From Candidatus Woesebacteria bacterium GW2011_GWA1_44_23 (GTDB taxonomy: Bacteria; Patescibacteriota; Microgenomatia; UBA8517), in NCBI GenBank assembly GCA_001001045.1, contig LCIL01000005.1, positions 21,409-85,408 of the forward strand: a DNA stretch of 64,000 bases, written 5' to 3'. Below, one piece after another: positions 26,220 to 51,821 of this stretch; within the stretch, counting starts at the first letter, position 1, and every line of letters starts with the position of its first letter. The position numbers were made by a program, and so were the translations under genes. Below the pieces are notes generated by a model. That model was given only the letters and a program-made list of their open reading frames with translations. It was not told the DNA's origin and did no database searches.

Positions 26220-26244
26220 CCTTGCAAAGTCTCTTCTTACAAGG
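26220..26244. repeat. REP-like imperfect palindrome, left copy
   Basis: CCTTGCAAAGTCTCTTCTTACAAGG, 12 nt before the RAYT-like start; 21/25 identical to the reverse complement of 49377..49401. Confidence 0.55.
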
Positions 26245-26256
26245 TAGTTTTAGATT

Positions 26257-27417
26257 ATGCCTGCCAAACTGCTTAGAAGGGTGGCTGAAGAAGGTACGTT
26301 CAGTCATATATATAATAACGGGGTTGAAAATATAGCCATCTTCAAGGACCGGCAAGACTTTGAAGTCTTTCTGGGTTTTTTGAAAGATTACCTATCTCCG
26401 GTCAGTTCCGAAGTTCCCAAAAAAGAATTCACTATTGAAGGCCGCTCTTTCCGGGGCACTCCCCGCCAACCTAAAAATTACCTGGGCAGAGTCGAGCTTA
26501 TCGCCTACCGGCTCACCCCTACCCATTTCCACCTCATCCTGCATCAGAATACCCCGGACTCGCTTGGGAATTTCATCAGGTCCCTCTGCACCAGATACTC
26601 GATATATTTTAATAAAAAATATTCCCATTCCGGAGCTTTATTCAACGGCCCCTACAAATCAGTTTATATCAAGGGTATATCCCAGCTTTTGCACTTCACC
26701 CGGTATCTCCACCGCAGTCCAGATAATGGTGAAGACCCTGTCAAAATATATACATCATACCCAGAGTATATCGGTCAAAGACAATCTTCATGGGTAAAGA
26801 CGAACGCGGTGCTTTCGGTCAAAGGAGTAGACGAGTACAAGGATTTTGTAGAAAAATATCAGCTTAACCAAGAAGAAAGAGATATTCTCGAAGGTGTTCC
26901 TTTTGATGTCAAAGCCCCGCACAAGGAAGAAGTCCTTTATGCACCCGACACCGTTTCCGCTTCTTCCCATGGGACACCTGAACTTTCCCACAAGGCACCG
27001 CCTACTGATTTAAAACCCCGGCCCCGTATTTTCGAGTACGGACTGGCAATGGGGGTTTTTATTGTACTTCTGAGCTTTGGGTTAAATAATGTCCGTGTTT
27101 CTCAGGCAAGATATTCAACAAACTCTCCGGTTCTTTCCGAATCAACAAGCATTATGCCCTCCCCGACCGCTGCCTTACCACCCACCGGTTCTCCCGAACC
27201 AAAAATAATGGTAACAGTTAAAACTGCTGATGCCTCGGTAAGTGCCAATATCCGCAAGGAGCCGAGTTTTCAGGCGGAAATAATCGGTATGGCCAAAAAC
27301 GGTGAAGTTTTTGAATCCGTGTCGATAGGCCCGGAGTGGAATGAGATCAAACTAAATGACGGTTCAATAGGATTTATATTATCAAAACTGGTACTAATAG
27401 ATCAAACTAATATCTAA
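26257..27417 (+). CDS. RAYT/Y1 (IS200-like HUH) transposase domain fused to TM helix and C-terminal SH3 domain
   Basis: HIYNNG...IFKDRQDF...AYRLTPTHFHL (HUH)...YFNKKY...GALF...RYLHRSP (catalytic Tyr position); TM YGLAMGVFIVLLSFGL; SH3b-like ANIRKEPS...IIG...WNEIKLNDGSIGFI. Confidence 0.85.
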   Translation: MPAKLLRRVAEEGTFSHIYNNGVENIAIFKDRQDFEVFLGFLKDYLSPVSSEVPKKEFTIEGRSFRGTPRQPKNYLGRVELIAYRLTPTHFHLILHQNTPDSLGNFIRSLCTRYSIYFNKKYSHSGALFNGPYKSVYIKGISQLLHFTRYLHRSPDNGEDPVKIYTSYPEYIGQRQSSWVKTNAVLSVKGVDEYKDFVEKYQLNQEERDILEGVPFDVKAPHKEEVLYAPDTVSASSHGTPELSHKAPPTDLKPRPRIFEYGLAMGVFIVLLSFGLNNVRVSQARYSTNSPVLSESTSIMPSPTAALPPTGSPEPKIMVTVKTADASVSANIRKEPSFQAEIIGMAKNGEVFESVSIGPEWNEIKLNDGSIGFILSKLVLIDQTNI

Positions 27418-27418
27418 T

Positions 27419-28009
27419 ATGCGCAAGATTTTAACATATATCGGCTTTGTAATCGCATGTGTTTTGGTTTCTCTGCTTTTTGTAACCGCCACTACATATA
27501 TTCAGTTAGCCGTTGCTGTCATCCTCTACCCCATCGTTGCCTATTTTGTAATGAAGATCCTCCCCCGCAAGACTAGAGTGGTCCCGGCAGTCGCGGTACA
27601 GACAGCGGGAACACAGGAGGAGGTTGCCGATTTTGACAGACGTACATTTCTCAAACTTGTGGGGGCAACAGGAATTTTCTTTTTTGTGTCCTCGCTTTTC
27701 GGTAAATGGGCCGGTGCTTTGCCGTTTGGCAAATCCTTGGGGTTGGGAGGCAATAGCATACAGGGGAATTCCGCCACCCCCGGAGCCGGCAACCCAGGAT
27801 CTTTGACTGCAAATGGCTACCAAATTTCCGAGATCGATGACGGCGCAATTACGTTTTACGGATTTACCAATGTTGACGGATCCTGGCTAATCATGAAGGA
27901 AGACACCGAAACAAGTTCTTTCCGCTATGCAAAAGGAAGCTCGGGATTTCCCGCAAGTTGGGATAACCGGCAAAATCTCAAGTACGACTACTACTATAAT
28001 CTCTTCTGA
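27419..28009 (+). CDS. Membrane protein with two TMs, internal twin-arginine signal and small C-terminal domain
   Basis: DFDRRTFLKLVGATGIFFFVSSLFG after two TM helices; C-terminal YQISEIDD...YGF...WLIM...FRY...W..R..L.YDYY. Confidence 0.75.
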   Translation: MRKILTYIGFVIACVLVSLLFVTATTYIQLAVAVILYPIVAYFVMKILPRKTRVVPAVAVQTAGTQEEVADFDRRTFLKLVGATGIFFFVSSLFGKWAGALPFGKSLGLGGNSIQGNSATPGAGNPGSLTANGYQISEIDDGAITFYGFTNVDGSWLIMKEDTETSSFRYAKGSSGFPASWDNRQNLKYDYYYNLF

Positions 28010-49935: not shown

Positions 49936-49941
49936 AAATTT

Positions 49942-50103
49942 ATGTTTCAATCGATAGGGACAACAGAGTGGATAATAATTGCCGTCTTGGTACTTTTACT
50001 CTTCGGAGGAAAAAAGATTCCGGAATTTTTCAAAGGCATCGGTGAGGCCGTCAGGGAGTTTAAGAAAGCTTCAAAAGATACCGACGAGAAAAAAGAAGGA
50101 TAA
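49942..50103 (+). CDS. tatA: TatA translocase subunit (53 aa, below ORF-track cutoff)
   Basis: [64 protein letters not shown] at 49921. Confidence 0.92.
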
Positions 50104-50123
50104 TCCAGTAGAATGTTCTCAAG

Positions 50124-50873
50124 GTGGAAAACATCAAGGCTCTCGGATCCCCCGAAGTTAAAGAAGCGCTAGCCAAGTACTCTCACTATTTGGTTGAAGC
50201 CCGCAAAAAGATCATATTTACGCTTATTGTTTTCGTTCTGGCAACTTTCGTGGGTTTTTTCTTTTATGAACAGATAATAAAATTTCTGGTTGATTTCCTG
50301 AGTCTTACCGGAATCAACATAGTTTTCACTTCCCCATTCCAGTTTATCAATCTTGCAATCAGTTGCGGCGTGGCAACCGGCATAATATTTTCCTTTCCGC
50401 TTCTTGTCTTCCAAATCATGTCCTTTTTGAAGCCGGCTCTCAGAGGAAAAGAATATAAAATGATCATGAGGCTCCTGCCCTTTTCCCTTATTCTTTTCGC
50501 TTTGGGGTTTTCATTCGGGGTTTTTATTATGAAATGGCAGGTCCAGATATTTTTAAGCAGGGCAGTTTCAATCGGCATCGGCAACATCCTGGACATAAGT
50601 AAGCTTTTATCGGTAGTTCTTTTAACCTCCGCTCTGATGGGGATAGGTTTCCAGTTTCCTATCCTGTTGCTTCTTCTTCTCAGAATCGGTCTAATTACCA
50701 ACGGTCAACTTCGTAAAATCCGTAAATGGGTTTATCTCGGTTCTTTCGTGTTCGCGCTGCTGCTGCCGCCGGATTCAATTTTGGCAGACGTACTTTTATC
50801 GCTGCCTTTGATAATCCTTTACGAAATTACCCTGATTCTAGATAGAACTTTTGACGGTCACCGTTTAACCTAA
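50124..50873 (+). CDS. tatC: TatC translocase subunit
   Basis: Six TMs; HYLVEARKK, FTSPFQF, FLKPALRGKE, GIGFQFP, LLPPDS, PLIILYEIT; follows two tatA genes. Confidence 0.88.
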   Translation: MENIKALGSPEVKEALAKYSHYLVEARKKIIFTLIVFVLATFVGFFFYEQIIKFLVDFLSLTGINIVFTSPFQFINLAISCGVATGIIFSFPLLVFQIMSFLKPALRGKEYKMIMRLLPFSLILFALGFSFGVFIMKWQVQIFLSRAVSIGIGNILDISKLLSVVLLTSALMGIGFQFPILLLLLLRIGLITNGQLRKIRKWVYLGSFVFALLLPPDSILADVLLSLPLIILYEITLILDRTFDGHRLT

Positions 50874-51821
50874 GCGGTTTGCCTTAAACCAATCGACAAA
50901 TTCGGTTAGACCAGCCTCCAAGGTGATCTTGGATTCAAATCCGAGAAGTTTTTTGGCCTTTGAGGTATCCGCATACGTGTTTCTCGATTCCCCGCTGAGA
51001 CTTGGAAGATATTTGATTTTTGCCTTCTTACCGGTTATTTTTTCCAAAACGGAAATAAACTTTTTAATGCTTACCGGACGGCTTGCGCCGAGGTTAATTA
51101 TTTCGTAACCGAAAGGTTTGGCAAGGGCAAGTGTTATGCCCCGGACAATATCTTTTATGTTCGTAAAGTCGCGCGTTGCACGCCCGTCCCCGTTCAGGTT
51201 AATTTTTTTACCTGTTAAGAGAGATTGCGTAAAAATGTAAGGTGACATGTCGGGGCGCCCCTTGGGGCCGTAGACAGTAAAAAAACGGAGTATGGTAACG
51301 TTTAGGCCGTAAATCATGTGGTAGGTGTAGCAAAGGAGCTCAGCCGACCTTTTGGACATCGCGTAGGGATTAAGAGGCTTAAGACACGGCGCATCTTCCT
51401 TTGAGGGAATGGGTTCATCATTGCCGTAGACCGATGAGGATCCTGCAAATACGACGTCTTTAACTCCCATTTCCCTTGCGGCCTCCAAAACGTTAAGGGT
51501 ACCGGTAACATTTGTTTTGATGTATAAATCCGGGTTTTTAAGCGAATTTCTTACCCCTACTCTTGCGGCCAAATGGACAACTTTATCGAAGTGAAGCCCC
51601 TTAAGAAGGCGCATTAACCGGGCGCGGTCCTCAATATCGACGTTCAAAACCCGCAGGCGTTTATTTTTGAGCCTACGGATATTTTCCTTCTTGAAAAGGA
51701 TGTCATAATAGTCACTGAAATTATCAACACAGGTAACCTTGTCCCCTTTTTTAAGTAGTTCCTCAATTAAACTTGAGCCGATAAATCCGGCGCCTCCCGT
51801 AACAAGAATTTTCATATTCAA
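50865..51821 (-). CDS. NAD-dependent UDP-sugar 4-epimerase (UDP-glucuronate epimerase-like SDR)
   Basis: ILVTGGAGFIGS, HLAARVGVRNS, SSSVYG, YAMSK, RFFTVYGPKGRPDM. Confidence 0.88.
   Translation of the reverse strand: MNMKILVTGGAGFIGSSLIEELLKKGDKVTCVDNFSDYYDILFKKENIRRLKNKRLRVLNVDIEDRARLMRLLKGLHFDKVVHLAARVGVRNSLKNPDLYIKTNVTGTLNVLEAAREMGVKDVVFAGSSSVYGNDEPIPSKEDAPCLKPLNPYAMSKRSAELLCYTYHMIYGLNVTILRFFTVYGPKGRPDMSPYIFTQSLLTGKKINLNGDGRATRDFTNIKDIVRGITLALAKPFGYEIINLGASRPVSIKKFISVLEKITGKKAKIKYLPSLSGESRNTYADTSKAKKLLGFESKITLEAGLTEFVDWFKANRLG

Follow-up and report, generated by a model that had tools for sequence, protein, structure and literature searches.

The locus described here occupies 26.2–51.8 kb of a 64,000-nucleotide stretch of Candidatus Woesebacteria bacterium GW2011_GWA1_44_23 (contig LCIL01000005.1, positions 21,409 to 85,408; hereafter, the window), which belongs to a 596-kb assembly of 21 contigs that is 93.7% complete. 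Its 23 genes, nearly all on the plus strand, encode two giant serine-rich proteins built on (SPSx)n repeats (SPS1 and SPS2), a cluster of sugar-related proteins, two pairs of membrane proteins and a twin-arginine translocation (Tat) system, and they are flanked by housekeeping genes (ArgRS, ComEC, ComEA and LeuRS; M23 peptidase, Rho, sortase and RadA). An earlier note on this stretch had proposed that signal-less mucin-like proteins acquire their glycans here in the cytoplasm and that membrane-anchored carriers then display them through a dedicated Tat system, beside domesticated transposases. Each component that it named is present in the sequence, in or near its proposed place, though its inventory passed over a minus-strand dCache gene inside the locus (Table 1).

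SPS1 begins with a globular region of adhesin type (~520 aa), continues with ~1000 aa of (SPSx)n repeat and ends in a conserved C-terminal domain (hereafter, C-domain). Neither SPS protein begins with a hydrophobic stretch (MAVTYVKAS.. and MATRLYLPS..), and neither C-terminus (..LPMKKV and ..LPMKRIKT) carries an LPXTG motif. A sortase gene lies ~8 kb downstream of the locus (59564–60454, minus strand). SPS2 is present, as the earlier note had it, but is split in the assembly over three reading frames (45045–46496, 46406–48106 and 47674–49365) that shift at exact repeats of 63–99 bases (46380–46478, 46544–46606 and 47648–47746). At these repeats the contigs from four independent public runs, which belong to different studies, all break off and none bridges them, and short-read contigs cannot settle the frame question; since the contigs stop there and a joint from 46526 to 47747, present in all four runs, keeps the frame, the shifts are probably assembly artefacts of one gene of ~1430 aa. 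Parts of the first 520 residues of SPS1 are common to thirty large proteins of the Candidate Phyla Radiation (CPR), whose precomputed Pfam labels are of lectin and Ig-like types; one of these relatives has a signal peptide before the domain and another an N-terminal anchor. The domain is thus extracytoplasmic in other CPR proteins, which argues that SPS1 works outside the cell. The C-domain closes all 14 chromosomal SPS proteins whose C-termini were seen, and it is also encoded as a stand-alone (solo) gene just before tatA. The solo domain has a predicted fold (pLDDT 87.8) for which Foldseek found no PDB match at E ≤ 0.001, and a second structural search reached Z ≤ 4.6, too weak to name the fold; the weak matches came from trimerisation modules of phage tailspikes, Bordetella phage Mtd, phage hyaluronidase and collagen XV/XVIII. 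Its distant phage echoes were phrog_1325 (E 6e-7) and one 528-aa phage protein.

The sugar cluster consists of nine co-oriented genes (29101–37474): three GT2 glycosyltransferase (GT) paralogues with a DxH motif, a weak GT1-like protein, an RmlD fusion, a Methyltransf_24 protein and three proteins without a Pfam match. The GT2 paralogues, for which Glycos_transf_2 was the sole Pfam match, have DxH, QGSCW and TWYAH in common. Single-sequence searches of the PDB gave polypeptide GalNAc-transferases as best matches (E 9e-5) and, with GT b, no match. A profile of 18 GT sequences matched GalNAc-T1 (E 1.6e-13) over 254 of its 289 positions (7–260), followed by GalNAc-T4, T12, T9, T2 and T10, while polysaccharide synthases matched over the first ~85 positions only. 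D98, H100 and H268 (DxH plus a distal His) are invariant in this profile, and we take them to be the three metal ligands of GT27 enzymes, which thus appear conserved. By profile, the DxH enzymes are specifically related to mucin-type polypeptide GalNAc-transferases (GT27-like), a relationship in line with the O-glycosylation of mucin-like proteins that the earlier note had proposed. As in animal GT27 enzymes, the match takes in the whole catalytic domain with DxH, the Gal/GalNAc-T-motif region and the distal His; unlike those enzymes, the window's GTs (about 260–370 aa) show neither a type II membrane anchor nor a ricin-type lectin domain in Pfam searches. No signal or transmembrane (TM) helix was found in the sequence of any cluster protein. 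The ~200-aa C-terminal domain of the RmlD fusion is a separate gene in relatives, and a homologue of the window's epimerase sits within the GT cluster in three genomes (G001, G244 and G173; G numbers denote genomes and L numbers loci). PDB sequence searches with the 247-aa and 240-aa cluster genes returned nothing useful. NCBIfam gave no match for 12 of the 15 locus proteins tried (among them the RR, Y1-SH3 and SPS proteins and the cluster proteins of no known function), and the three DxH GTs matched weakly, far under the cut-offs; PHROGs searches with 10 locus proteins matched phrog_1325 and one GT only, with no match for the RR proteins, Y1-SH3 proteins or SPS N-domains.

The Tat genes themselves are unambiguous matches: tatC matches PF00902 with E 8.1e-41 (140.6 bits against a cut-off of 25.1), and the two tatA genes match PF02416 with E 1.1e-11 and 1.7e-16. 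Their putative substrate is the RR protein, whose gene lies one base behind that of an SH3-domain membrane protein in both window copies; the two gene pairs are paralogous to each other, with 28% and 33% identity, and neither they nor the C-domain have further copies elsewhere in the 596-kb genome. RR protein 1 runs from TM1 and TM2 through a cytoplasmic loop to the motif DFDRRTFLK, a weakly hydrophobic TM3, a basic residue and a C-terminal domain (~130–196). Of the candidates scored, at least 244 belong to its family at E ≤ 1e-3, none with a Pfam domain. In an alignment of 24, the motif reads D-x-[DN]-[KR]-R-x-F-L-K, with R, F and K invariant, and the C-terminal domain ends in YDY..N.F. The reading of copy 1 as R-R and of copy 2 as K-R holds, but R-R does not describe the family, whose consensus is K-R (R-R occurs in 2 of the 24); across 30 genomes, 15 had R-R and 15 K-R. 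AlphaFold2 predicted two N-terminal helices, a disordered loop, a long helix holding the motif and TM3, and a four-strand domain (pLDDT 72–80), with helices at residues 2–23, 27–47 and 68–98.

Kyte-Doolittle hydrophobicity is lowest in TM3 (1.55, against 2.45 for TM1 and 1.81 for TM2), and basic residues follow TM3 directly in 24 of 24 family members. Low hydrophobicity with a following positive charge marks the release of a helix from Sec to Tat, according to Tooke et al. (2017), and a 2026 review terms such dual Sec/Tat membrane proteins class IV Tat substrates. Polytopic examples are the actinobacterial Rieske protein Sco2149 and its relatives (Tooke 2017; Keller 2012). The RR protein has the same Sec-type TMs, loop, last TM of low hydrophobicity, positive charges and folded C-terminal domain, with a twin-arginine-type motif before the last TM (consensus of such signals, S/T-R-R-x-F-L-K; DRRTFLK in RR protein 1, NKRVFLK in RR protein 2), and very probably is, as far as sequence predicts, a class IV substrate, which agrees with the internal Tat signal proposed earlier. 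Unlike the Rieske proteins, it lacks a cofactor domain, the part predicted to be exported being a ~65-aa phage-type beta domain. Four viral contigs encode this domain as an 82–112-aa protein beside portal and head genes, an ESM Atlas comparison placed it with three mostly viral clusters (TM-score 0.84–0.86), and its best BFVD match was an 89-aa Caudovirales protein; an ESM-Atlas feature search gave no usable match. The outer C-terminal domain of the RR protein is of phage type. A motif scan of all open reading frames (ORFs) in the genome found no other convincing Tat signal (RRxFLK), a crude scan that also missed RR protein 2.

Table 1 Features of the locus in the window and, in the last rows, of related loci (positions there are preceded by the locus number)
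Feature	Position	Strand	Basis or remark
Y1-like + TM + SH3_3 protein, copy 1	26257..27417	+	Pfam, motifs; HUH and Tyr kept
RR protein 1 (196 aa, DFDRRTFLK)	27419..28009	+	Sequence, alignment, AlphaFold2
dCache membrane protein, no output domain	27994..29007	-	Pfam; adjacent also in G001, G205
GT27-like glycosyltransferase a (DxH, QGSCW)	29101..29886	+	Pfam, profile
Weak GT1-like protein, cluster-conserved	30129..30917	+	Pfam, relatives
GT27-like glycosyltransferase b	31019..31888	+	Pfam, profile
RmlD-type reductase fused to ~200-aa C-terminal domain without Pfam match	31870..33372	+	Pfam, relatives
240-aa conserved cluster gene, no Pfam match	33369..34091	+	Relatives, viral contigs
227-aa conserved cluster gene, paralogue of 35578-36321, no family match	34261..34944	+	
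Methyltransf_24 methyltransferase	34947..35576	+	Pfam
247-aa conserved cluster gene, no family or PDB match	35578..36321	+	
GT27-like glycosyltransferase c, directly 5' of SPS1 as in phage contigs	36362..37474	+	
Promoter-like TATAAT, then hairpin CCGTTT..AAACGG; element copy 1	37522..37576	+	
SPS1, signal-less 1629-aa (SPSx)n protein	37649..42538	+	
Y1-like/TM/SH3_3 protein, copy 2, HUH and Tyr lost	42856..43902	+	Motifs
RR protein 2 (NKRVFLK variant)	43904..44572	+	
Promoter/hairpin element copy 2, one base shorter	44913..44966	+	
SPS2, (SPSx)n gene, three frames in assembly, C-domain at end	45051..49365	+	
Stand-alone (solo) C-domain, 64 aa	49487..49681	+	
tatA 1	49732..49935	+	PF02416
tatA 2	49942..50103	+	PF02416
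tatC, sole copy in genome, locus-linked clade	50124..50873	+	PF00902
NAD-dependent sugar epimerase/dehydratase	50865..51821	-	Pfam
MerR/HTH_17 versions on TM-SH3 scaffold	L034:17467-18381, L052:1678-2553, L055:11517-12467, L056:1903-2757		
AAA/DUF4143-type ATPases	L053:4468-8250, 11987-13129; L057:2317-4867; L044:8626-9759		DUF4143 match tested in L044 only

The locus was surveyed in 301 genomes of the same class, and the window's genes were compared with related intervals from these genomes. The RR family was present in 34 genomes and TatC in 32, with both in 26, RR alone in 8, TatC alone in 6 and neither in 261. Where the two share a contig (16 genomes), they lie 6–25 kb apart on the same strand, TatC being downstream in 15, and 11 loci keep the succession SPS, solo C-domain, tatA, tatC. 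Conserved synteny and co-occurrence of this kind make the locus more than a chance assembly: it is a real, conserved unit in Microgenomatia, in which the RR/KR protein, SH3 protein, signal-less fibres and tatA/tatC form one island rather than being scattered. The eight RR-only genomes were considered as evidence that RR and TatC are independent, and this was dropped, given that their contigs break; assembly breaks in the repeat genes probably account for most apparent absences. In six of them (G244, G205, G042, G006, G173 and G290) the contig breaks off within the GT cluster or within an SPS or other cargo ORF downstream of RR; in G196 one contig ends in the GT cluster and the other runs out in a Ser/Ala/Leu/Pro-rich ORF; and in G170 the SPS ORF reaches within about 250 bases of the contig start. 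Among the TatC-only genomes, two with TatC of the kind described below as A/B (G144 and G261) have contigs that end in an upstream Thr/Gly-rich ORF, and the other four carry type C loci. G281 has an RR gene, and only type C TatCs are assembled there. (The inspection of TatC left out G036, G112, G209, G255 and contig 6 of G230.)

Three locus types can be distinguished. In type A, the order is [Y1 or HTH]-TM-SH3 protein, RR/KR protein, GT cluster, SPS protein with C-domain, solo C-domain, tatA(s) and tatC, with the solo gene always between SPS and tatA. This arrangement is complete in G001, G077, G274 and G110, and the tatC contig starts inside the SPS ORF and continues with the solo gene, in some cases tatA, and tatC in G191, G099, G119, G264, G293 and G044. 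Type B has one or more separate TM-SH3 genes, an R-R protein with AEAAFFGSVPGPG after TM3 in most loci, a ~155-aa TM protein, a separate Y1_Tnp gene and a PrsW-like gene. It also has signal-less Thr/Ala/Ser/Gly-rich cargo proteins, which reach 3020 aa, a beta-helix protein of ~435 aa, and tatC accompanied by between two and five tatA genes. Up to five tatA genes stand in tandem around one tatC in such genomes of ~1 Mb (L039:1399-2935 and L044:1685-2389). A 130–155-aa membrane protein follows tatC in type B (L046:818-1243; also L033, L038, L039, L043 and L062), with a PrsW-protease match in the one locus tested. In type B RR proteins (L020, L022, L023, L027, L030 and L031), KKAEAAFFGSVPGPG is common right after TM3 and forms an A-x-A-type site at which signal peptidase might, judging from the sequence, release the phage-type C-terminal domain.

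Type C loci have no RR protein; a distant TatC is followed in 7 of 7 loci by a signal-less protein that begins M-[AS]-x-(R)-L-P-T-V-G-G-D-x-G-x-W-G-T-[IV]-L-N, and two of these cargo proteins have beta-helix, pectate-lyase or phage-depolymerase matches. The type C loci (L063–L069) come from G071, G165, G131, G073, G230 contig 1 and G281 contigs 31 and 1, and a divergent gene upstream encodes a protein that has a Sec signal and a YGSG/YGDG repeat. In a TatC tree of 28 rows, type C (7) separated from A and B together (21), each with 100/100 support, and type A formed a clade of 11 rows (100/100). G110, which combines SPS cargo with a type-B-like RR protein, has a TatC that falls among type B. 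In several second-copy loci, AAA/DUF4143-type ATPase genes stand between the RR pair and the cargo and look like insertions.

The GT27-like family follows these types closely. It occurs in 21 of the 301 genomes, all RR-positive and with the family beside the RR gene, and in 0 of the 267 RR-negative genomes, so that the link between DxH enzymes and RR proteins drawn in the earlier note is upheld. The cluster was missing from the 8 type B loci in which the interval from RR to tatC was read, and the GT family from all 13 type B genomes; present with the SPS type and absent from type B, the cluster goes with SPS cargo. This distribution bears on the possibility that the sugar cluster builds an envelope polysaccharide or modifies a lipid-linked glycan, with any glycosylation of SPS proteins taking place outside the membrane through a Wzy_C/TPR protein. 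An RmlD-type reductase, an epimerase and methyltransferases are indeed typical of polysaccharide loci, and a co-oriented membrane protein upstream (24221–26149) weakly matches Wzy_C (O-antigen ligase-like) and carries TPR repeats at its C-terminus. This gene was dropped as a member of the locus, however, as it is not conserved beside it in relatives, and Pfam revealed no flippase or polyprenyl-phosphate transferase in the cluster. Together with the full-length similarity of the GTs to protein-O-GalNAc transferases, the confinement of the cluster to loci with SPS cargo and its travelling with SPSx genes in phages (below), these points make a polysaccharide role improbable.

The GT profile also reached well beyond bacterial chromosomes, matching 569 viral contigs in IMG/VR; neighbourhoods were read in the best 80 of these, whose GTs were 56–74% identical to the window's GT c. 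The other cluster genes recurred beside them: Methyltransf_24 in 59 of the 80 loci, the 227-aa gene in 53, the 247-aa gene in 49, GT a in 39, GT b in 26, the 240-aa gene in 25 and the RmlD fusion in 13. These loci also held 38 Ser-rich ORFs with true (SPSx)n repeats, most of which start with M-A and lie directly 3' of the GT, and the N-domain of SPS2 shares 50% identity, over 204 residues, with a protein encoded on a 113-kb viral contig. Relatives of the RR protein, Y1-SH3 protein, tatA and tatC were found in 0 of the 80 loci, and TatC in 0 of 5 whole phage genomes. PHROGs searches of 10 viral loci (63 ORFs) found two with unmistakable virion genes within 6 kb (terminase, portal and head genes in L080; adaptor, neck, terminator and tail genes in L110), one holin and one HNH nuclease, and direct terminal repeats were present in 2 of 5 whole viral records. 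Two phage genomes of ~99–101 kb with such repeats (L080 and L118, in G301 and G304) carry the GT27-like cluster and (SPSx)n proteins, which suggests that glycosylated phage fibres of a kind not yet described are widespread. By sequence, the GT cluster with its (SPSx)n proteins is a phage-borne module of phage origin. At their C-termini the phage SPS proteins have short tails of various kinds: 0 of the 38 Ser-rich phage ORFs carry the C-domain, and a C-domain scan of viral contigs yielded no confirmed relative.

Given this origin, the GT cluster and SPS genes of the window could be a decayed prophage or phage cassette whose virion-type fibres stay in the cytoplasm until lysis, the Tat neighbourhood being merely an insertion hot spot at the tRNA-Ala gene (51848–51919, 975 bases past tatC). 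The abundance of the module on viral contigs, some with virion genes or terminal repeats, and the phage relative of the SPS2 N-domain fit this possibility, as does precedent: O-glycosylation of mycobacteriophage virions by phage-encoded glycosyltransferases has been reported (Freeman et al. 2023, as cited in PMC12619734). According to the latter, these transferases work in the host cytoplasm and glycosylate structural proteins at their Ser/Thr-rich parts, as the module would here, although the enzymes and phages differ and the glycans sit on capsid and tail-tube C-termini. Phage origin, which had been put forward as a challenge to a display system, thus stands for the module itself, but the chromosomal loci lack phage hallmarks and are fixed beside Tat. 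Pfam matched no terminase, portal, capsid or integrase among the window's genes, which have housekeeping flanks; the GT family never occurs outside RR-family genomes in the 301 surveyed, which would be unexpected for free prophages; the order SPS, solo, tatA, tatC is kept across loci while TatC co-diversifies; and the C-domain and solo gene are specific to the chromosomal versions. We therefore regard a prophage remnant as improbable.

The gene directly 5' of the RR gene always encodes a protein ending in a TM helix and SH3_3 domain. Copy 1 in the window has a cytoplasmic Y1 domain (Y1_Tnp E 1.1e-3; its 19.5 bits lie below the 23-bit cut-off), one TM helix (residues ~258–276) preceded by basic residues, and an extracytoplasmic SH3_3 domain (E 1.5e-7); Y1_Tnp scores in orthologues (26–44 bits) are above the Pfam cut-off. 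The Y1 motifs are HFH and RYLH in copy 1 and RFD and RSLH in copy 2, which has lost both HUH and Tyr and is the dead copy it had been taken for; HUH is kept in 12 of 12 aligned orthologues and Tyr in 9 of 12. The cytoplasmic part is Y1_Tnp in eight loci (both window copies, G077, G274, G244, G196, G006 contig 22 and G173) and two MerR/HTH_17 domains in four (G001, G205, G042 and G006 contig 6), and in type B loci Y1 and TM-SH3 are separate genes. Like IS200/IS605 Y1 and RAYT proteins, copy 1 and most orthologues have the HUH and Tyr-helix motifs; unlike them, the domain is fused to or stands beside TM-SH3 and is exchangeable with MerR/HTH, and no sign of mobility was seen, the genome having two copies only, both in the locus. 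This exchange suggests a membrane-tethered DNA-binding regulator, and the Y1 domain is likely its DNA-binding module. The domesticated HUH transposases of the earlier note are therefore recognizable in the HUH motif that copy 1 keeps, but they point to a regulator rather than a carrier. A 54-base element of TATAAT and a hairpin, CCGTTT(TG)AAACGG, has two sites in the whole genome, 5' of SPS1 and of SPS2, and in some relatives similar hairpins or a GCAATACAATGCC motif precede the SPS genes; the regulator possibly acts on this hairpin-bearing promoter.

These observations can also be read to mean that Tat serves the RR/KR protein only, which would form with the DNA-binding SH3-TM protein an envelope sensor that switches the fibre genes, like FecR-type (class V) or ToxR/ToxS-type regulators, the fibres leaving by another route or by lysis. 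The constant place of the TM-SH3 gene, its exchangeable cytoplasmic domain (a separate gene in type B), its one-base spacing from the RR gene and the confinement of the promoter element to the two SPS genes all agree with a sensor. So do the dCache or CHASE sensor proteins that adjoin such pairs (dCache homologues are beside the locus in G001 and G205), and FecR is itself named a known Tat substrate with an internal signal in a review. A sensor leaves unexplained, however, why signal-less fibre genes abut tatA/tatC in all three types, including the RR-less type C, and why chromosomal SPS proteins gained a C-domain shared with the gene next to tatA, and another way out of the cell is not apparent. 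We judge a sensor in place of export unlikely, though far from negligible, and as an idea it is compatible with export and need not replace it.

Our preferred reading is that phage-derived fibres are glycosylated in the cytoplasm and displayed via a dedicated Tat system, to which we assign a probability of roughly 0.45. It starts from what was directly seen (gene content, homologies, paralogy, synteny, co-occurrence and the module's distribution in phages) and would run as follows. A phage module for making glycosylated fibres would have become established in the chromosome, with an RR-type membrane protein on one side and a dedicated Tat system on the other. The three DxH enzymes would add the first sugar to Ser of SPSx (GT27 enzymes prefer Pro-flanked Ser/Thr), and the remaining cluster genes would extend and methylate the glycan. 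We infer that SPS proteins are glycosylated and methylated, and that glycosylation is cytoplasmic, from the pairing of such enzymes with their substrate, both without signal or TM helix, a pairing also present in phages, which have their proteins synthesized in the cytoplasm. The C-domain that the SPS proteins and the solo gene share, and that phage versions lack, would probably trimerise or dock the fibre. The RR/KR protein would be inserted as a class IV substrate, TM1 and TM2 by Sec/YidC and TM3 with the C-terminal domain by Tat. The fibres, which have no other visible exit (a search of this 93.7% complete genome found a single SecY, and neither a second SecA or SecY nor any SecA above the cut-off), would cross through TatA2C, Tat being the pathway that takes folded or bulky substrates, maybe bound to the RR protein during crossing, the least supported step. 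With Y1 or MerR/HTH as its cytoplasmic domain, the SH3-TM protein would act as a membrane-tethered regulator, possibly of the hairpin-bearing SPS promoter.

A broader proposal, tentative and rather doubtful as a whole, is that Tat in Microgenomatia is a dedicated exporter of phage-derived fibres folded in the cytoplasm (and glycosylated in the SPS type), in three locus types with TatC lineages and cargo of their own, in two of which a membrane protein would supply the twin-arginine signal and an anchor via its phage-type adaptor domain.

Several points weigh against display through Tat. Unlike in known class IV substrates, K-R replaces R-R in half of the RR family, all 15 K-R genomes being of SPS type, and Tat dependence is here predicted from sequence; likewise, it is from sequence that SPS proteins may leave the cell and may contact Tat or the RR protein. 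A profile of the RR C-terminal domain matched none of 5 SPS-bearing phage genomes, so an ancestral pairing of fibre and adaptor was not seen, and the weak structural matches of the SPS C-domain are trimerisation modules, not docking domains. The hybrid G110 indicates that the type of RR protein and TatC does not co-vary strictly with cargo type. Nine of the 34 RR genomes lack an A/B-clade TatC, probably an assembly limit. No RNA runs containing the locus were listed. To our knowledge, a glycosylated cargo of 1400–3000 residues is far beyond known Tat cargo.

Among the closest concepts (serine-rich repeat proteins with accessory Sec, dual Sec/Tat substrates, Tat hitchhiking and virion glycosylation), none has the composition of this locus. 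Serine-rich repeat protein (SRRP) adhesins are glycosylated intracellularly and then exported by accessory Sec (aSec), according to PMC7948813, PMC5578698 and PMC6973325. The likeness extends to giant serine-rich repeats with a variable N-terminal globular region, adjacent signal-less glycosyltransferases and a dedicated translocase in the same locus. Here, in contrast, the window has no SecA2, SecY2 or Asp proteins, no long N-terminal signal and no LPXTG, and GT27-like enzymes, TatA2C, the SPSx repeat and a phage-shared module take the place of GtfA/GtfB and aSec; the resemblance is one of analogy, not homology. Tat hitchhiking, reportedly the subject of Rodrigue 1999, would likewise have a signal-less protein cross with a twin-arginine partner, but known cases are cofactor enzyme complexes such as hydrogenase subunits, whereas a giant glycosylated fibre and a membrane-anchored carrier are proposed here. 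Literature searches on Tat in CPR bacteria or a link between Tat and fibres found no description of such a system (supplements not covered), and those on GT27 in phages found unrelated papers only; one paper only lists Tat genes in Microgenomatia.

Two results stand independently of export: a widespread phage module of GT27-like enzymes with (SPSx)n proteins, and a Y1 transposase domain that is swapped with MerR/HTH on a membrane-tethered SH3 protein. How CPR bacteria, which live attached to other cells, build their surfaces is little known. If the proposed display is correct, Tat would have a new job in these bacteria, exporting very long, pre-folded and sugar-coated fibres that stretch the limits of its cargo, and the presence of tatA, tatA and tatC in a 0.6-Mb genome without another visible Tat substrate would be explained. 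It would be the first Tat-based surface display and the first bacterial GT27-like mucin-type O-glycosylation for display, giving animal mucin-type O-glycosylation a counterpart in bacteria and phages. Phage structural modules would then have been captured for the cell surface, a wholesale domestication of phage tail-fibre modules by ultra-small bacteria.

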